This document shows, in pieces, positions 1,339 to 55,801 of a DNA stretch of 64,000 nt (the stretch's first letter is position 1; each line of letters starts with the position of its first letter). Position numbers and translations under genes: made by a program. The notes beneath the pieces were generated by a model. The model was given only the letters and a program-made list of their open reading frames with translations. It ran no database searches and was not told the DNA's origin. Source of the DNA: an uncultured Candidatus Saccharibacteria bacterium (GTDB lineage: Bacteria > Patescibacteriota > Minisyncoccia > Phycocordibacterales > Phycocordibacteraceae); contig CAYUQB010000001.1 of assembly GCA_964446735.1 (NCBI GenBank), forward strand, positions 380,460 to 444,459, read 5' to 3'.

Positions 1339-1507
1339 AAAAATTTGAATCCGCGCTCAATGGCGCGGTTTTGGAAAACCTGCGGCCATTGGTCCGAGCG
1401 AAACCTCGTACGTAGCGTGTAGGCGCACAGTACACGTCCGCGCCAGAAATTGCAAATCAGGGAAACGAAAGAGCCGGGTGTCCCCACCCGGCTCCAACTC
1501 GCCTGCC

Positions 1508-1774
1508 TTACGCGGCCTTCTTCAGGGGCCGCTCTTCGCTTTTCCTCTTCGCCCGCTCGATGCGAGCGACCACGAACCGTCGCTCTGCGTAGAGTCGCTC
1601 CGTGTGCTGTCGGCTCGCCTCGATGTAGACCACCTCCTGCGCCCGAAGTTGCGGGAGCGAGCTCATTTCCGCCCGAAACATCTTTTCCGATTCGAGCAGC
1701 TTGTCGATCTTTTCGAGTTCGGACTCAAGCTCCGCGAGCGTTGCGGGCCGCAAGAATTTGAACAGGTGCAACAT
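1508..1774 (-). CDS. hypothetical 88-aa coiled-coil protein inserted between rpsJ and rplC
   Basis: ORF on the same strand as the flanking r-protein genes; charged and helical; no recognisable family. Confidence 0.3.
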   Translation of the reverse strand: MLHLFKFLRPATLAELESELEKIDKLLESEKMFRAEMSSLPQLRAQEVVYIEASRQHTERLYAERRFVVARIERAKRKSEERPLKKAA

Positions 1775-2128: not shown

Positions 2129-2150
2129 CGCCCCGGTTACCCGGGGACGT
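2129..2150 (-). terminator. hairpin terminator downstream of guaA-remnant mini-ORF
   Basis: cgccccgg-ttac-ccggggacg stem-loop, followed on the minus strand by TTTTGTTTTT. Confidence 0.5.
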
Positions 2151-2169: not shown

Positions 2170-2343
2170 CTATTCGGCGAGGGCTTCGCGAACCAGTCTG
2201 GCAGCGACTGCGGGGTCCACACCACCCGAAAGGCCGCAGATCACCTTCCCGTCGCCGACCTGGTCCCTGATGCGTTTGACCGCTTCGTCACGGAATTCGT
2301 CACGAAGCTGACCCTGCCGGGTCGCCTTTGATTTGCCTGTCAT
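2170..2343 (-). pseudogene. guaA: 57-aa remnant of the GMP synthase ATP-pyrophosphatase (PP-loop) domain
   Basis: [57 protein letters not shown] aligns to the start of the GuaA ATP-PPase domain (consensus FIEEAVxxIReQVGDxKVILGLSGGVDSSVxAxLL); PP-loop SGGVDS is mutated to SGGVDP; stop comes right after; AGGAGG RBS 7 nt upstream; below the ORF-track size cutoff. Confidence 0.6.
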
Positions 2344-2369
2344 TGGGCACCTCCTGGCTATAGCATAGC

Positions 2370-2397
2370 AAAACGCCCCGATCTCTCGGGGCGTTTT
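2370..2397 (-). terminator. intrinsic terminator immediately after rpsJ
   Basis: 12-bp perfect stem aaaacgccccga/tcggggcgtttt with 4-nt loop, followed by a U-run on the minus strand. Confidence 0.65.
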
Positions 2398-2411
2398 GCT
2401 AGTTGGTCCGT

Positions 2412-2795: not shown

Positions 2796-3995
2796 TTACG
2801 CGGTGATCTTCGTCACGACGCCGGCACCGACGGTCTTACCACCTTCGCGAATAGCGAAGCGGGTGTTGTCCTCAAGCGCGATCGGCGCAGTGAGCTTGAC
2901 CTTGAAGGTAACGGTATCGCCCGGCATGACCATTTCCTTGCCTTCCGGAAGGGTAACCTCGCCGGTGACATCGGTCGTGCGAACGTAGAACTGCGGCTTG
3001 TAGCCAGTGAAGAACGGCGTGTGACGGCCACCCTCATCCTTAGAAAGGATGTACACCTCTGCCTCAAAGTCGGTGTGCGGGGTAACGGTGCCGCTCTTTG
3101 CGAGCACCTGACCACGATGCACATCCTCCTTCTTCGTGCCGCGCAGGAGGATACCAGCGTTGTCGCCAGCCTGACCTTCCTGAAGCTGCTTGTTGAACAT
3201 TTCGATGCCAGTGACGGTCGTCTTGGCCGTCGGCTTAAGACCAACGATTTCGACTTCCTCACCAACCTTCACAATGCCGCGGTCGATGCGGCCCGTAACG
3301 ACGGTGCCACGACCTTCAATCGAGAAGATGTCCTCGATTGCCATGAGGAACGGCTTGTCGGTCTCACGGACTGGGTCCGGGAAGTAGGAGTCCATGGTGT
3401 CCACGAGCTCCTTAACCTTGAGCGCCCACTCGTCTTCAGCGCTGGTCGCCTCAAGCGCCTTAAGACCGGAGCCCTTGATGACGGGAGTGTCCTTATCAAA
3501 GCCCTGCTTGGTGAGAAGGTCACGAATTTCCTCTTCAACGAGGTCTACCATGTCCTTGTCATCCACCATGTCTACCTTGTTGAGGAAGACAATGAGCTTC
3601 GGCACACCCACCTGCTTTGCAAGAAGAATGTGCTCGCGGGTCTGCGGCATTGCGCCGTCAGTTGCGGCGACCACGAGAACTGCGCCGTCCATCTGGGCGG
3701 CACCCGTGATCATGTTCTTGATGTAGTCTGCGTGGCCCGGAGCGTCGATGTGCGCGTAGTGGCGGTTCGGCGTCTCATATTCCGAGTGGTGAAGCGCGAT
3801 GGTAATACCGCGCGCCTTCTCCTCGGGCGCGTTGTCGATGTTTTCGACCTTCTCTGCGCGAGCCTTGTAGCCAGCGCCAGAGTTGAGGTTGAGAACATTC
3901 AGAATGGAAGCCGTGAGCGTGGTCTTACCATGGTCGACGTGACCGATAGTACCTACGTTCATGTGCGGCTTGCTGCGATCGAATGCATCTGCCAT
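2796..3995 (-). CDS. tuf: elongation factor Tu
   Basis: 399 aa, [31 protein letters not shown] motifs. Confidence 0.95.
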
Positions 3996-4258: not shown

Positions 4259-4852
4259 TTACCCGGCGGCGAAGGCCGGCGTCTTGCCGCGGAAGCCACT
4301 TTTGGGCTTCTCCTCCCCGCGGGCGGCGGCCTTGCGGGCCTTCTTGCCGCACGGGTTCTGCTTGCGAGGCGCGTGACCTGGCTCGAACATCGTTTCGGCG
4401 AGCGGCGGCTCCTCATTGCGCAGGGCCGCCACCAGTTCCGCCTCGATGGTGACCGGGTCGACGACCGGCAGCGGATCGACGCATGGCTTGGGCTCGGCTG
4501 ACCACTGGAGTTGCCGCGGCCCGAAGAGCGCGGTCAGCTCGGCGTTCGGGAAGACCAGGCCGCTGGTGGCGACGAAGTGGCGGATCATGCCCATCGTGGC
4601 GCGGTCGCCCAGGTCGTAGAGGACCTGGTAGGCGCGGTCGAGCGGCTCGGGCTCGCTGAAGGTCCAGCCGTTGCCGACGCGGACCATGATGACGACGAAG
4701 GCGTGCTCTTTCTCAAAGAGCCGGCCGGCCTCGAGCATCTGCCACAGCGTGGCTTCGTCGTAGACGGGCTGCTTGAAGCGCGAGATCAGGTAGCCGACGC
4801 CGAATTCGGACTTCGGCTTGGTGTAGCTGCTGGCATCCGGAATCTTGGACAT
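4259..4852 (-). CDS. hypothetical protein (GC-rich cassette between tuf and fusA) with basic C-terminal tail
   Basis: 197-aa ORF, locally elevated GC, C-terminus APRKQNPCGKKARKAAARGEEKPKSGFRGK; no family recognised. Confidence 0.45.
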   Translation of the reverse strand: MSKIPDASSYTKPKSEFGVGYLISRFKQPVYDEATLWQMLEAGRLFEKEHAFVVIMVRVGNGWTFSEPEPLDRAYQVLYDLGDRATMGMIRHFVATSGLVFPNAELTALFGPRQLQWSAEPKPCVDPLPVVDPVTIEAELVAALRNEEPPLAETMFEPGHAPRKQNPCGKKARKAAARGEEKPKSGFRGKTPAFAAG

Positions 4853-4962: not shown

Positions 4963-5409
4963 CTAGTGATGCCCACCGCCATGCCCACCGTGTGCCTCAG
5001 CCTTTTTTTGACCGCCGCCGCCGCCTCCTTCTCCTCGTATGGATTCAACCGCCCCCTTAAGAAGACCGCCCCCAATCGTCTTAACTCCTATGTGCCACCC
5101 CCAAAACCAGAGGAATCCAAAGAATCCTCCCACTCCTCCATGACCATGGCCGCCCTCATGATGTGCGGAGGCATGGTTGCCACTCGAGATTGGTGCACCT
5201 ACCGATATTCTGCCCGGAGCTGTAGCACTAGTCCGAGCAAGGTTCGCTTTGGTCTGTTCAATGGCTTGAGCGTTCTCTCCGGTTGCGGGGGGCGTCTGTG
5301 CATGTGCTTCGGCAGCTTGTGCCTCGGCTTCTACTGCGGCCTCATGATCTTCTTGAGTCTCTGGCACCTTGGGAGTTCGTTCAGGTCCAGCGGGAGGGTT
5401 TTCTGACAT
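4963..5409 (-). CDS. hypothetical His/Gly-rich low-complexity protein
   Basis: 148 aa with HHEGGHGHGGVGGFFGFLWFWGWHIGV and GGGGGGQKKAEAHGGHGGGHH; an alternative ORF on the opposite strand (4951-5406) is also open, so the strand is uncertain. Confidence 0.3.
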   Translation of the reverse strand: MSENPPAGPERTPKVPETQEDHEAAVEAEAQAAEAHAQTPPATGENAQAIEQTKANLARTSATAPGRISVGAPISSGNHASAHHEGGHGHGGVGGFFGFLWFWGWHIGVKTIGGGLLKGAVESIRGEGGGGGGQKKAEAHGGHGGGHH

Positions 5410-7632: not shown

Positions 7633-7713
7633 AGAGTAAATGACTAAATAAAAAAGCCCGCAGATGCGTTAGCTACAAGATACGTTTTGGAGACTGAAAA
7701 CGCAAGAAAAGAA

Positions 7714-7741
7714 ACGGGCGCCCCAGCGATGGGACGCCCGT
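7714..7741 (-). terminator. hairpin after KGG-protein gene
   Basis: acgggcg...cgcccgt stem followed by a U-rich tract on the minus strand. Confidence 0.4.
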
Positions 7742-7770
7742 CGGTCGTGGGCCGGGAGGCTGGGGTCGGT

Positions 7771-7977
7771 CTAGAGGCCGTGCGCCCTGCCGCCGCCGCG
7801 CGAGGCCTCGCCGCCCTTCTTGCCGGCGCTGGCCGCGAGGTCGCGGTCCTTCGCGAAGGACCGCTTTTCGCCGGGGACGGCCGCGCCGCCCTTCCTCGCG
7901 ATCTCGCGCCTGCGCTCAGGGTTCATTGCGGCGAAACCGCGCCTGGCGCGGGGCTTTCCGGTGGTGTCGGTCGGCAT
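7771..7977 (-). CDS. KGG-repeat stress-induced protein (YciG-like)
   Basis: RGFAAMNPERRREIARKGGAAVPGEK...SAGKKGGEASRGGG matches the KGG motif GFASMDPEKQREIASKGG; GC-rich. Confidence 0.55.
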   Translation of the reverse strand: MPTDTTGKPRARRGFAAMNPERRREIARKGGAAVPGEKRSFAKDRDLAASAGKKGGEASRGGGRAHGL

Positions 7978-8124
7978 GCTGGGGTTCCTTCCCTCGATGC
8001 GGTTGAACGTTGTACGCTACTGGCCGGGATAATACGTCTATTGTAGAAAAAAGCAAGTGATGGGAAGACAAGCCACACAAGAAGTGCTACGCTCCACGCT
8101 AGTTGTAGTGCAGGGGGAATACCA

Positions 8125-11566: not shown

Positions 11567-11959
11567 TCAGTTCTTCCCCTCTCTGCGATACCGTTCTTTC
11601 ACCTCCTTGTACGCTGCTTCGGTACCGGGATTTGCGCCATGCGCTTCCCGGTTGAATATCTCAACCGGGTATTTCTCCTCCACTTTCTCCAGTTTCTCCC
11701 GAAGAATCTCCTCAACATCAAGGTTGAGCGTCACCGCCATTTCGAAACAATAGATCATCACGTCGGCAAGTTCCTTGCGGATCGCTTCCATTTTCTCTGC
11801 GTCCGCCTGTACCTCATGCGGTGGTTGGTTATCCCACTGAAAAACCTCAAGAAGCTCCGCGCCTTCGATCATGACCGACTTGGCAAGATCTGCGGGACGA
11901 AGTTCATCCCACCCACGCTCCGCAAGGTGCTTGCGTATGATCTCTGAAAATTCCTGCAT
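11567..11959 (-). CDS. MazG-like nucleotide pyrophosphohydrolase
   Basis: DLAKSVMIEGAELLEVFQW and ELADVMIYCFEMA, the EExxE/D metal-binding helices of all-alpha NTP-PPases. Confidence 0.6.
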   Translation of the reverse strand: MQEFSEIIRKHLAERGWDELRPADLAKSVMIEGAELLEVFQWDNQPPHEVQADAEKMEAIRKELADVMIYCFEMAVTLNLDVEEILREKLEKVEEKYPVEIFNREAHGANPGTEAAYKEVKERYRREGKN

Positions 11960-15073: not shown

Positions 15074-15505
15074 TTAGGAATCGAACCTTGCTTTATCCAT
15101 TGCACGGTTCGCAAGCGCATCAGCGTCTGTATTGTTCTCGCGATACACATGCTCGAAAGAAACGGTACCGAACGAACGGGTAAGCAAATTCTTCACCTCA
15201 AGATACCGGGGAACGAGATTTGGATGCTTCACCTTATACGCTCCTTTTAGTTGTTCGATAACAAGTTTGCTGTCCATCCGAATAACGAGCGGAATGGTTT
15301 TCAGATGGTCGGGTGGGTATGCACCTATGAGCTCCTTCAGACCTCGAATAACCGCCTCGTATTCAGCAATGTTATTCGTCGCAACGCCTAAGTAATCAGA
15401 CACTTCGACAACGCGTTTGCCGAGCTCGTCAAAGACCACCGCACCAGCACCTGCGGGTCCCGGATTTCCCCGAGCGCCGCCATCGGCATACAGTGTAAAT
15501 TGCAT
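15074..15505 (-). CDS. rnhA: ribonuclease HI
   Basis: MQFTLYADGGARGNPGPAGAG...AEYEAVIRGL...TDADALANRA. Confidence 0.85.
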   Translation of the reverse strand: MQFTLYADGGARGNPGPAGAGAVVFDELGKRVVEVSDYLGVATNNIAEYEAVIRGLKELIGAYPPDHLKTIPLVIRMDSKLVIEQLKGAYKVKHPNLVPRYLEVKNLLTRSFGTVSFEHVYRENNTDADALANRAMDKARFDS

Positions 15506-21619: not shown

Positions 21620-23335
21620 TTATGGGAAGGATGCTGCATAGAAAAGATGGCCGGAAATGGTTACGTCGGTGTAGTTCGTAGTGGTGTATCCGGTCTTGGC
21701 GATCGTAATGGTATAGGTACCACTTGCGAGTCCTCCAAAATACGCGGTTCCGCAGGTGGACGTCGTAACGATTTCCGAACCGCTTGAGCTGTCAGTAAGC
21801 GTAACGGTAGCACCTGAAACACTCGCACCCGTAGTATCTCGTACCCACACGAGCGCACGATGCGTTGTCGCATCTCCTAAGTAGAGCGCAGCTGAATTGG
21901 TTGATCCAGGAGAAAGTGCGTACGGTGGGGCGGCACAAGCCTCAACGACATCATATCCGGTTATAGAAAACGTATAGGAGTCCCACTCAAGTGACAGTGG
22001 GGCTATGCCTGACGCATTCGTTGAGGTACTGAGTGTCGTCTTCAAAATAGGGGCACCACCACCCGTGGACCCGATAACCTTGGTGCCCGAGAGTGTGAAC
22101 GGAACATTCGGTTCGGGAACCGGGCCGACTCGCGAATTAAGGCTCCACGTATCAACTGATGGGGTACTCGACGCGTCAGTCGTGCTCATGGTCGCAACGA
22201 GCGAGAGTGATGGGTAGGTAGAAGTTGAAACAGTGGAGAGATCAATGGAGGTCGATGTAAACCCTGCACTGTTACCAGGCACATCGGCATCAGGAAGTAT
22301 CGTGCCAGCTGCGTCAGCGACCTGCACGCGCACAGTGGTATTACTCGGAGTCAGGAGTGTCGTACTTGCCGTAGTCCAGTACGCAAGCAACGCTGGAGCA
22401 ACTGCGGTTGAACGTGCCGATCCATTGGCGAGATAGCCACCCGCATCGCTTCCTAACTGAAGGCGGCCGCCCGACACCGTTGCGTTGGTGAGAGAGGCAA
22501 GTTGCGAGGAATCGGCAAACGTATCAGTAGTCGAGGTCGCACGTATGGGGTAGTAGGTTGCGAGCGTGAGTGTTGCGAGGGTGTCGATAGCAAACGTTGC
22601 GGTCGTTGTCGTATTTTCAACGACGGTGAAGTATCCCGGAGTGGGGTTCTGATTCACCGCATCGCGCGCATACGTCTGCGCGCTTGAGTAGCCATCCTTG
22701 GATACATATATCTGATATTGCGTTGATGTTGCCGCTCCACCCAGGTACACTGTTCCCGTCACATCCGAGAATGTTGTCACATCGATTGTCGGACTCGTGC
22801 TCGCATTTACTACCTGCACACTTGCACCAGCAACTGGGTCGCCAGTCGCATTCACGACCACGATCTTGAGCGTTCCTCCACCCGTAGTCGTCTCTATCGA
22901 AGCGGGCGCATACGTTGATACGAACGGAAGCTCATAGTACTTACCGCGTAGTTCGTAGGTAACTTCGACTTTTATTCTCTTATAGTCAGTAGTAATGCCG
23001 TTTGTGTCTGCGGCATCGCTCCCATCCGCAGGGTCATCTACGTATCCAATAAAGGTACGGACGCTATACGTAATACCGTTCATGGTCGTAGTCGCGTACT
23101 GCGGAACCACGCCCGCAGGAATGCCTCCAACCGTTCCTACTGAATCATAGGAAAGTGAGCGAACATACTCCATGTGCGTGTTCCCTACCGCAGTTGCACC
23201 GGCGCGAGCCTTCGCGACCGATGCGATGAGAAGCGAACTGCGCAGTAATCCGATCAGCGCAAGAAAAATAATGAGCACTAGCGTAGAACCAACGAGGACA
23301 TCAACCATCGAAAGGCCTCGAGGAGCAGCAGTCAT
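21620..23335 (-). CDS. large (571 aa) pilin-like protein, prepilin-type N-terminus with Asp at +5
   Basis: MTAAPRG|LSMVDVLVGSTLVLIIFLALIG then a Thr/Ser/Gly-rich beta-rich body; candidate tip adhesin or minor pilin. Confidence 0.5.
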   Translation of the reverse strand: MTAAPRGLSMVDVLVGSTLVLIIFLALIGLLRSSLLIASVAKARAGATAVGNTHMEYVRSLSYDSVGTVGGIPAGVVPQYATTTMNGITYSVRTFIGYVDDPADGSDAADTNGITTDYKRIKVEVTYELRGKYYELPFVSTYAPASIETTTGGGTLKIVVVNATGDPVAGASVQVVNASTSPTIDVTTFSDVTGTVYLGGAATSTQYQIYVSKDGYSSAQTYARDAVNQNPTPGYFTVVENTTTTATFAIDTLATLTLATYYPIRATSTTDTFADSSQLASLTNATVSGGRLQLGSDAGGYLANGSARSTAVAPALLAYWTTASTTLLTPSNTTVRVQVADAAGTILPDADVPGNSAGFTSTSIDLSTVSTSTYPSLSLVATMSTTDASSTPSVDTWSLNSRVGPVPEPNVPFTLSGTKVIGSTGGGAPILKTTLSTSTNASGIAPLSLEWDSYTFSITGYDVVEACAAPPYALSPGSTNSAALYLGDATTHRALVWVRDTTGASVSGATVTLTDSSSGSEIVTTSTCGTAYFGGLASGTYTITIAKTGYTTTNYTDVTISGHLFYAASFP

Positions 23336-46235: not shown

Positions 46236-48152
46236 ATGCAGTACCTCGACGGCCTCAATGAACGACAGAAAGAGGCCGTTCTTACCACCGAGGGACCAAT
46301 TTCGGTACTTGCGGGTGCAGGCTCAGGAAAAACCCGCGTACTTACAACACGTATCTACCATCTCATCCGTCAGGGTACGCCCGCTGAGAAAATTCTTGCC
46401 GTCACCTTCACCAATAAGGCGGCACGTGAGATGCGAGAACGACTCGGGAAGCTCCTGGGGGATGGATCAGTGCCATTTGTTGCAACCTTCCATGGACTAG
46501 GACGTGAGCTCCTACAGAAATACGGCCAAGCGATTGGGGTCCCACGCTATTTCAGCGTGTACGATCGGGATGATTCCGAACGTGCCATCAAAGAAGCTCT
46601 GAAGAGTTTGGACATCGATCCCAAAGAGATTCCACCGCGCTCAATACTCGCCCGTATCAGCAGAGCGAAAGGGGAGGGGGAAACCCCAGAGACATTTAAG
46701 AGTCGTCACGCCTCGGAAGGATTCCGCTCACGCATCGCATCACAGGTATGGGATAAGTACGAAGAAACACTTACACATGAGAAGGCACTTGATTTCGACG
46801 ATCTGATCGCGAAACCCGTTGCACTTCTTCGAGAACATAAAGAAGCACGTACACTCGCTCAAGAGCGTTTCTCCTATGTGCACGTTGATGAATACCAAGA
46901 CACCAATGAACTTCAAGGAACACTTGCAAATCTCCTAGTCGAAACGCATCGAAACCTTTTTGTCGTCGGTGACATCGACCAAACTATCTATACCTGGCGA
47001 GGCGCAACCATCGAGAACCTGCTGTCGTTTGACGAGACCTACCCGGAAGCAAAAACTATTGTGCTGGAGCACAACTATCGCTCGAGCAAGACTATAGTTG
47101 AGGCGAGTAACCGCATCATTGAGAAGAATCGCAATCGTAAGGAGAAGCGCGCGGTAACTGATAATCCTGATGGTCATCCCATACGGCTTCTGGTAGCTGA
47201 CACTGCAGAAGAAGAAGCACGTCGGATTGCACGAGAGGCGCGCGAATATATACGTTCGGGCGTTGCCCCGGAACAAATAGCAGTGCTATATCGTACAAAC
47301 TTCCAGTCACGAGTACTCGAAGAAGCCTTTCTTAGCGAAGGTATTCCGTATCGTTTACTGGGTACCCGCTTTCTTGATCGCAAGGAAGTGAAAGACGTTA
47401 TCGCCTGGGTACGACTCGCTCTTGATCCGTTACGACAGAGCGATCGCGTGCGCGCGGTGCAAGCCCCGTCTCGTGGAATCGGTAAGGTCACGGTCGCAAA
47501 GATGGCGACAGGAACACTTGATGGCCTCACGCCTTCTGTGCGAGCAAAGATAGAAGCGTTTGAGAGTACCGTCCGTACGCTTCACGAAGAAAGTAAAACT
47601 GCGGCACCCTCTGCATTCGTGCGACGAGTACTAGAGCTCTCGGGTATGCAGGGAGTACTCGAGAAGGGAGGGGAGGATGACCTGGAGCGTCTTGAGAACG
47701 CTAAAGAGCTCGCGACACTGGCGAGTCGATACGACCATATCCCAGGTACCGAAGGACTGGATGCATTTCTTGCAGACACAGCTCTGGCGGGGGACCAAGA
47801 CGAGCTCGATCGCCCGCAAACGAAGCAGAAGGAGGGAGTAACACTCATGACCGTGCATGCGGCCAAGGGCCTCGAGTTTGAAGCAGTGTTCGTCTCTGGT
47901 CTTGAGGAGGGTCTATTTCCGCATGAGGGGATGGGCGAGAACGAGGAACGAGACGAGGAAGAGGAGCGACGCCTGTTCTATGTCGCTATGACACGGGCAA
48001 AATCTCGTTTGATCCTTACTATGGCCCGCGTTCGGCGTATTTACGGTACAGATTATCTCTCCGAGCCTTCTTCATTCCTCCATGACATTGATCCAGGTCT
48101 TATGCGCATTGAATACGGCGAACGGGAAGAGGAAGGGGTGATACATATATAG
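46236..48152 (+). CDS. pcrA: ATP-dependent DNA helicase UvrD/PcrA family
   Basis: LNERQKEAVLTTEGPISVLAGAGSGKTRVLT, DEYQDTN, VLEHNYRS, TVHAAKGLEF; 638 aa. Confidence 0.85.
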   Translation: MQYLDGLNERQKEAVLTTEGPISVLAGAGSGKTRVLTTRIYHLIRQGTPAEKILAVTFTNKAAREMRERLGKLLGDGSVPFVATFHGLGRELLQKYGQAIGVPRYFSVYDRDDSERAIKEALKSLDIDPKEIPPRSILARISRAKGEGETPETFKSRHASEGFRSRIASQVWDKYEETLTHEKALDFDDLIAKPVALLREHKEARTLAQERFSYVHVDEYQDTNELQGTLANLLVETHRNLFVVGDIDQTIYTWRGATIENLLSFDETYPEAKTIVLEHNYRSSKTIVEASNRIIEKNRNRKEKRAVTDNPDGHPIRLLVADTAEEEARRIAREAREYIRSGVAPEQIAVLYRTNFQSRVLEEAFLSEGIPYRLLGTRFLDRKEVKDVIAWVRLALDPLRQSDRVRAVQAPSRGIGKVTVAKMATGTLDGLTPSVRAKIEAFESTVRTLHEESKTAAPSAFVRRVLELSGMQGVLEKGGEDDLERLENAKELATLASRYDHIPGTEGLDAFLADTALAGDQDELDRPQTKQKEGVTLMTVHAAKGLEFEAVFVSGLEEGLFPHEGMGENEERDEEEERRLFYVAMTRAKSRLILTMARVRRIYGTDYLSEPSSFLHDIDPGLMRIEYGEREEEGVIHI

Positions 48153-55378: not shown

Positions 55379-55801
55379 ATGGAGTACCAGGTACCGCAGT
55401 TCATCGAGGTAGAGGACAAGATTTTCGGTCCATTCACCCTAAAACAGTTTATCTACCTTGCTGGCGGAGGCGGTCTTTCAGCAGTCATTCTCCTGTATGT
55501 GCGTCCACTCTTTCTCGCATTCGTTCTTGTTGCACCTATCGCAGCGCTCTCTGCCGCACTTGCATTCTATAGAGTAAACAACAAGTCTTTTGTTGAGGTG
55601 CTCGAAGCAGCGTTCAACTATTACACCAAGGGACGTCTCTACCTGTGGCGTAAGGAGAAAAAGGAAGAGTCTGCTTCGGTTCCCCAGGCACCGACACCAG
55701 TAGTTCCCGAACGTCAAAAACTTGGCCTGTCCCAGCGCAAGCTTCAGGATCTGGCATGGTCGCTGGATATTAAGGACGCAAGTTCGAACCAGAATTCATA
55801 A
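55379..55801 (+). CDS. PrgI/VirB3-like small T4SS membrane protein
   Basis: MEYQVPQFIEVEDKIFGPFTLKQFIYLAGGGG + two TM helices; pattern shared by PrgI/TcpE-type proteins that precede VirB4. Confidence 0.55.
   Translation: MEYQVPQFIEVEDKIFGPFTLKQFIYLAGGGGLSAVILLYVRPLFLAFVLVAPIAALSAALAFYRVNNKSFVEVLEAAFNYYTKGRLYLWRKEKKEESASVPQAPTPVVPERQKLGLSQRKLQDLAWSLDIKDASSNQNS

Follow-up and report, generated by a model that had tools for sequence, protein, structure and literature searches.

The 57-amino-acid (57-aa) open reading frame (ORF) under study lies between two ribosomal protein genes on the minus strand, at positions 2170–2343 of a 64-kb window (the whole stretch of DNA that was analysed) on a 516,752-bp NCBI contig. 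It comprises 57 codons and runs from an ATG at 2341–2343 to a TAG at 2170–2172. Read along the minus strand, the order of features is tuf (2796–3995), rpsJ (encoding ribosomal protein S10; 2412–2774), the 57-aa ORF, a 345-bp non-coding stretch, an ORF of 88 aa and rplC (encoding ribosomal protein L3; 733–1338). The conserved upstream flank is rpsJ, which falls in a 90% cluster named 30S ribosomal protein S10 of Patescibacteria/Parcubacteria and is 67–99% identical to 80 related loci; the conserved downstream flank is rplC, assigned by the Pfam family Ribosomal_L3 on an identical Logan locus and by tblastn to relatives. From the names of the S10 cluster and the titles of the 80 S10 loci we judge the host to be a Patescibacterium of the Paceibacteria/Kaiserbacteria type, and an initial reading made from the sequence alone (hereafter the sequence-only reading), which had envisaged a small-genome, epibiont-type host, was right as regards a small-genome Patescibacterium.

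The islet that holds the 57-aa ORF spans ~1.07 kb (a 1,076-bp gap), from the rpsJ terminator to the rplC promoter. Its second cargo ORF, the 88-aa ORF (1508–1774, minus strand), is followed by a terminator at 1470–1495; it forms a singleton cluster, has no Pfam or NCBIfam match and has no homologue in the corresponding slots of relatives. The non-coding remainder of the islet (1775–2120) contains two terminator-like hairpins, one on the plus strand (2045–2072) and one on the minus strand (1807–1822). Rfam searches of 1250–2500 returned only chance-level matches, none of them better than E = 1 within 1775–2120, and a Pfam search of ten stop-to-stop segments of the 1775–2170 spacer gave no match and hence no other dead gene. 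The plus strand of the remainder also carries AAGGAGGTGATCC (1999–2011), which seems to be complementary at all 13 nt to the 3′ tail of canonical 16S rRNA. No start codon follows it, and the strong terminator-like hairpin on the same strand is ~35 nt downstream; the pair may represent a dead gene start or a small RNA.

The signals that immediately surround the 57-aa ORF are those of a compact module. Directly after the rpsJ stop codon is a terminator hairpin (2366–2401, minus strand), detected both as an inverted repeat (I1) and as an RNA fold, with a perfect 16-bp stem (GCAAAACGCCCCGA / TCGGGGCGTTTTGC); hairpins of this type, AAAAC(C)GCCC...GGGCGGTTTTGCTTTTAT, are also present 3′ of rpsJ in relatives. 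An AGGAGG Shine-Dalgarno (SD) motif (2350–2355, minus strand) follows at 6 nt before the ATG, and beyond the TAG a terminator scan located a second hairpin with a TTTTGTTTTT T-run (2121–2146 or, more narrowly, 2131–2146, minus strand). The consensus ribosome-binding site with ATG, and the terminator after the frame, had already been pointed out in the sequence-only reading and are confirmed here. The exact 12-mer CGGGGCGTTTTG is common to the two terminators (direct repeat D1, spacing 245 bp). It occurs at 2124–2135, 2369–2380 and 2387–2398 and is absent elsewhere in the 64 kb, and its count was reached by none of 100 shuffles. Both bracketing hairpins resemble the rpsJ terminator of relatives. 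The module of the 57-aa ORF is thus framed by duplicated terminator sequence and, since the 12-mer is confined to the two flanking hairpins, the duplication would date from the installation of the module. Such an arrangement could have arisen either when DNA was inserted at the terminator or when terminators recombined; for a split-terminator model (one ancestral rpsJ terminator, a 233-bp insert and a 12-bp duplication), alignment scores against relatives gave no preference over the present arrangement. RNA polymerase that reads through the rpsJ terminator may transcribe the 57-aa ORF, and ribosomes may start on it at its own SD. The sequence-only reading called the fragment expressed-looking, a description that draws on sequence motifs.

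The junction between rpsJ and rplC is normally tight in bacteria. In 71 related loci the gap between the two genes was as short as ~20 bp and as long as 4.8 kb; its median was 824 bp, and in 51 of the loci it exceeded 300 bp. The ORFs within these gaps are almost never shared between species; the larger shared families come only from four contigs that have the same S10 protein (L002–L005). Apart from the terminator and the rplC leader, nothing in the 1,076-bp gap resembles the gaps of relatives, either at the nucleotide level or in translation. The cargo includes a cupin in L002 (Pfam) and, judged by eye only, proteins like reverse transcriptases, short-chain dehydrogenases, Hint-domain proteins and pirins. 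With conserved flanks and a content that varies between related genomes, the rpsJ–rplC junction is a hypervariable cargo slot in Kaiserbacteria-like Paceibacteria. A likeness between the C-terminus of the 57-aa ORF and that of a slot ORF in L013 (BLASTP E = 0.007) was discarded as not significant after ~50 ORFs had been inspected.

Other junctions of the ribosomal cluster have a comparable content. At the rpsG/fusA junction lies a gene for a 68-aa KGG-repeat stress protein (7771–7977, minus strand; Pfam KGG, E = 5e-11), within a patch of 76% GC at ~7700–8050, and this gene, too, probably represents foreign DNA inserted where a junction of the cluster allowed it. The fusA/tuf junction holds two orphan ORFs, both on the minus strand and both without a Pfam or NCBIfam match. 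In one (4259–4852), GC is 67% and GC3 reaches 90%, much higher than in host genes, and its single near-identical relative is on a Logan contig; the other (4963–5409) encodes a Gly/His-rich product and has a GC3 of 44%. The related locus L002 likewise has inserts, unrelated to these, at its rpsG/fusA and fusA/tuf junctions.

The downstream boundary of the slot is set by the promoter and leader of rplC. The promoter (1427–1455, minus strand) consists of TTGCAA (1450–1455), a 17-nt spacer and TG-TACTGT (1427–1434), that is, TTGCAA-17-TGTACTGT; relatives have TTGCAT-17-TGTAGAGT or TGTATAGT in its place. It is followed by a structured leader of ~85 nt (1339–1420, minus strand) that ends in a GC hairpin and a U-run and is conserved in at least 18 related genomes. 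Equivalent regions stand upstream of rplC in L002, L004, L007–L009, L011, L013, L014, L017–L020, L022, L023, L033–L036 and L070. In an 18-sequence alignment (A1) with a consensus structure, 95.7% of the cells are paired, against 26–49% in slid controls. Covariation is strong, with 23 double-change cells against 5.6±1.9 in shuffles, none of 500 of which reached 23. The stem of the leader (GCUA..GU..CG / CG..AC..UGGC) is extended and is interrupted by conserved internal loops; after it come a variable hairpin and, just before the ATG, a CGCGC...GCGCG hairpin with the U-run. No Rfam family matches it. The E. coli S10 leader has an L4-controlled attenuator, which the rplC leader recalls, and we propose the latter as a candidate for a new ribosomal-protein attenuator leader (L4/L3-type) of Kaiserbacteria-like Paceibacteria. 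It is probably of more interest than the guaA fragment in the same neighbourhood.

The 57-aa ORF itself is related to GMP synthase (GuaA). It matched the NCBIfam GuaA equivalog NF000848 with E = 1.1e-11 over model positions 197–238 of 512, TIGR00884 (guaA_Cterm) with E = 6e-10 and Pfam NAD_synthase with E = 5.6e-5; other PP-loop families were weaker than GuaA (NAD synthase, 1.2e-5; MnmA, 3.7e-3). All seven PDB matches are GMP synthases, the best being residues 214–251 of the E. coli enzyme (1GPM, E = 8.7e-9). Among 1.84 billion representative proteins, an exhaustive HMMER search found 771 matches at E ≤ 1e-3. Those inspected are GuaA or GuaA fragments, except for the query itself and one low-complexity repeat protein, and among the matches listed the alignments start near residue 15 and have 60–75% identity. 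By these searches the homology is significant and specific to GuaA over other PP-loop families. The claim of the sequence-only reading that the peptide matches the ATP-pyrophosphatase domain of GuaA up to the PP-loop therefore stands, and its proposed check on the significance of the alignment is answered in its favour by the E-values for NF000848 and 1GPM. Its further statement that the match is almost residue for residue applies to residues 15–56 and fails for the first 14, which are not GuaA-like; extension of the frame upstream into the terminator adds nothing. The guaA-derived stretch is thus 2176–2301 (minus strand), in which residues 15–56, corresponding to model positions 197–238, cover a helix, strand β-1, the PP-loop and the first part of the helix after it. 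Translational read-through of the TAG lengthens the GuaA alignment by 3–4 residues (~2 bits), and Gln (CAG) is frequent at this position in GuaAs of the matching type. Together these two points hint, if weakly, that the TAG arose by nonsense mutation (CAG to TAG) within guaA-derived sequence.

What is left amounts to ~42 of ~520 GuaA residues, or ~8% of the protein, and the whole-protein score of 44.1 bits is below the NF000848 cut-off of 400 bits. A class I glutamine amidotransferase domain or an adjacent GuaAA subunit was not found upstream in frame or in the 64-kb window, and downstream there is no GuaA similarity in any frame to the rest of the ATP-PPase fold or to the GMP_synt_C domain. 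When three GuaA proteins were compared by tblastn with the window (64 kb of ~517 kb), the only high-scoring segment was the 57-aa ORF, apart from one noise match at E ≤ 10. Within the remnant, the PP-loop is degenerate: S39-G-G-V-D-P44 (2212–2229, minus strand) has Pro, encoded by CCC at 2212–2214, where GuaA has Ser. Ser occupies this position in 140 of the 143 top matches and Pro in none. As the sequence-only reading had noted, the catalytic Ser of the loop is replaced (SGGVDP) and the stop follows 13 codons later. In addition, the AIGD motif has Ala in place of a Gly that at least 90% of 127 GuaAs share. The two halves of the peptide differ in how much they have retained. In a profile of 127 GuaA segments, residues 17–38 are typical of GuaA (94th percentile), while residues 39–57 have a lower score than any of the 127 real GuaAs (~6 SD below the mean), and the BLAST alignments to annotated guaA genes all end at residue 43. 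AlphaFold2, run on the single sequence, predicted helices at 9–30 and 44–56 and no strand (pLDDT 70.5, pTM 0.34), with an unstructured join at the expected site of the strand and loop. Judged from its sequence, the 57-aa product cannot be an enzyme. The ORF is truncated, has lost conserved residues and is missing from the same position in relatives, and the description of it as a guaA-derived relic is borne out by the truncation and the broken motifs.

The contig is a metagenome assembly, and a chimeric assembly or a sequencing error could in principle have created a false junction, or a false stop within a real guaA. A Logan assembly of run SRR12113420 agrees with the contig at every base over 2,525 bp, from the end of rpsJ to rplD and including the 57-aa ORF, although it may share reads with the NCBI assembly and is then not fully independent; it contains no further piece of guaA. 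The lack of GuaA similarity in any frame on either side means that no frameshift could restore a gene, and the flanks are host-specific elements conserved in relatives. We regard an artefact as highly improbable.

We also looked for similar short peptides. The 57-aa peptide is a singleton cluster at 90% clustering of ~15 billion proteins, a scan of JGI metagenomes for its junction peptide, aimed at related strains, gave 0 matches, and no full-length short homologue was present among the best 150 matches from the 1.84 billion representatives. Several candidates were rejected on inspection: the 50-aa look-alike P0002 turned out to be an ordinary guaA with a frameshift, on a guaB-rsmB-guaA contig, the multi-stretch top matches P0022 and P0024 are artefacts of duplicated assembly, and P0023, a repeat protein, is unrelated. 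Separately, in two Klebsiella prophage records, MK416010.1 and MK422448.1 (H17 and H18), a product annotated as ‘GMP synthase domain protein’ corresponds to the stretch of GuaA that is present in the 57-aa ORF. These pieces are probably ends of the host guaA captured at the prophage boundary and, if so, they illustrate another setting for guaA fragments.

The composition of the ORF is close to that of its surroundings. Its GC content of 62.1% is above the mean of the window (53.3%) and ranks at the 95.6th percentile of 174-nt windows, which agrees with the earlier suggestion that it exceeds the surrounding genome in GC; the excess is nevertheless marginal, as neighbouring ribosomal genes have 56–60% GC and the GC3 of 67% lies in the range of the neighbours (62–79%). 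A comparison of codon usage, which had been proposed as a check against core genes, revealed no foreign signature, the synonymous-codon score being at the 61st percentile of host 57-codon windows. Given this host-like codon use and GC3, composition gives no indication of a recent foreign origin. Nor did we find a donor among the plasmid and phage matches or 57 metagenome loci; cluster look-ups returned no names. The guaA genes at the 57 loci, which encode an identical 17-aa core, have a best nucleotide identity of 82–88% over at most 75 nt, and the plasmid and phage tblastn matches are to Alphaproteobacteria and Enterobacteria, with 70–80% identity over 25–28 residues, and are not discriminating.

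Host-like codon use is what would be expected of an old resident, and it counts in favour of a vertical origin, in which an ancestral guaA at this site was eroded in place during genome reduction and the 57-aa ORF is its last trace. Patescibacteria have reduced genomes and incomplete nucleotide synthesis, which would also suit such a course. The relatives speak against it. In 84 related rpsJ loci, each with up to 6 kb on either side, tblastn with three GuaA proteins detected no guaA or trace of it, and the content of the slot differs in every species, which points to turnover and not to shared ancestry. Moreover, the 28 residues before the position of the PP-loop Ser are still 70–80% identical to ordinary bacterial guaA genes, and a very long neutral decay is therefore hard to reconcile with the sequence. 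A vertical relic is, in our view, unlikely. The guaA fragment is private to this genome among the loci compared and turnover of the slot is rapid; acquired DNA is therefore favoured over descent in place. The sequence-only reading had left the choice between a lost and a horizontally acquired guaA open, and of its two origins the acquired one fits the variable slot better, while the last trace of a lost gene finds no counterpart in the 84 loci.

The translation signals of the ORF are unusual for this genome. Set beside the starts of the ~42 long ORFs of the window, its AGGAGG is the only canonical, well-placed SD; the one other GGAGG-like match is before 58275, ~12 nt from the ATG. Many of the long ORFs (for example 11567–11959, 15074–15505, 21620–23335, 46236–48152 and 55379–55801) instead have a -10-like box (TATACT, TATCAT, TAGAAT or TATAGT) before the ATG. 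Because these boxes lie only 6–10 nt upstream of the start codon, the pattern suggests that leaderless or very short-leader mRNAs are widespread in the host.

An intact 57-codon frame, a canonical SD at ideal spacing and a terminator of its own are what a real small gene would have, and they are points against reading the ORF as debris. They also count in favour of a functional micro-protein, in which the piece with β-1, PP-loop and helix has been co-opted, for example as a phosphate- or nucleotide-binding or regulatory peptide, under its own SD. The arrangement AGGAGG-N6-ATG in an intact frame between flanking terminators, the exceptional character of an SD in a genome otherwise devoid of them and the good preservation of the N-terminal GuaA-like part all belong on this side. 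The force of these points is reduced by several observations. Under neutrality, a composition-based calculation at 62% GC gives a chance of ~19% for an open stretch of 57 codons, and the intact frame is therefore not evidence of selection. In the relative L013, GCCGGAGGTGCGACATG stands at the same distance after the rpsJ terminator and heads an unrelated 84-aa ORF, and slot ORFs often carry SD or GGAGG-type sites, unlike host genes. The SD and ATG may accordingly be features of the slot, or of its cargo at large, rather than of the guaA piece, which would explain how a start site came to stand on a mid-gene guaA fragment. The peptide is also a singleton with no similar short family, it has lost the phosphate-binding Ser, and the predicted model has no confident fold and no strand. 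We therefore consider a co-opted function quite unlikely, and the more specific proposal, that the frame is translated from the only strong SD and kept as a working minimal phosphate-loop micro-protein with a new role, very unlikely. The repurposed micro-protein offered as an alternative in the sequence-only reading is not upheld, given a singleton in which conserved GuaA positions are broken and for which no autonomous fold is predicted.

The explanation that we consider probable is that the 57-aa ORF is a non-functional remnant of guaA DNA that was acquired and is decaying in an inter-operon slot where such DNA is tolerated, and that it is possibly translated. The analysis demonstrates the homology, the truncation, the broken motifs, the restriction of the fragment to this genome, the variable content of the slot and the duplicated terminator sequence on either side of the module. 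The horizontal origin, the absence of function and the expression status of the remnant are the parts of this best explanation that we infer. In outline, the rpsJ–rplC gap would serve as a tolerated landing place, with foreign or orphan DNA that differs from one species to the next. Acquisition would have brought the guaA piece there, as an entire gene subsequently pared down by deletion or as a ready-made fragment; ~126–140 bp of it survive and encode the first helix, strand β-1, the PP-loop and the beginning of the following helix. This remnant would then have drifted, with the change of the PP-loop Ser to Pro, of the AIGD Gly to Ala and possibly of CAG to the TAG stop. If expressed, it would yield a 57-aa peptide predicted to form a helix-loop-helix with no catalytic capacity.

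Taken alone, the guaA fragment matters little, and with 64 kb of ~517 kb searched it says nothing firm about the purine metabolism of the host; the literature on GMP synthase in Patescibacteria and on purine metabolism in Kaiserbacteria yielded nothing usable. Should the peptide turn out to be produced and retained, it would offer an uncommon example from nature of part of a protein put to new use as a micro-protein. The wider interest lies in the junctions of the str/S10 cluster, which in Kaiserbacteria-like Patescibacteria are small slots where foreign and orphan DNA accumulates and decays. Since these slots hold such DNA, bacteria with genomes of ~0.5 Mb would still take up and keep stray DNA.

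Comparison with known systems places the remnant as follows. Its likeness to GuaA (E. coli 1GPM; NF000848 / TIGR00884) is confined to residues 15–56, with 60–75% identity to many GuaAs, and it is without the glutaminase domain, the rest of the Rossmann-like fold and the C-terminal dimerisation/XMP domain. Mini-proteins of the β-(P-loop)-α type, designed or ancestral, have reportedly been described by the Tawfik laboratory, in which the element is said to bind phospho-ligands within a stable scaffold. The 57-aa peptide resembles these in spanning a strand, a phosphate-binding loop and a helix; however, they have a Walker-A loop, whereas the peptide has a PP-loop (SGGxDS) whose key Ser is lost, and it gives no sign of folding or binding. 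Short pseudogene fragments are known from reduced genomes such as those of Mycobacterium leprae, Rickettsia and insect endosymbionts. Like these gene remnants, the 57-aa ORF is a truncated piece of a housekeeping enzyme with broken catalytic residues that is not found in relatives and belongs to a small genome, but it lies in a variable slot and not at an ancestral locus, and it has a strong SD and terminators, both of which ordinary decaying fragments usually lack. The concept of horizontal-transfer hotspots flanked by core genes is said to be due to Oliveira, Touchon and Rocha. Although the rpsJ–rplC slot differs from such hotspots in its small size (median 0.8 kb), in its position inside the normally contiguous str/S10 cluster and in having no integrase or tRNA, it is like them in its conserved flanks and its species-specific content across the 71 loci.
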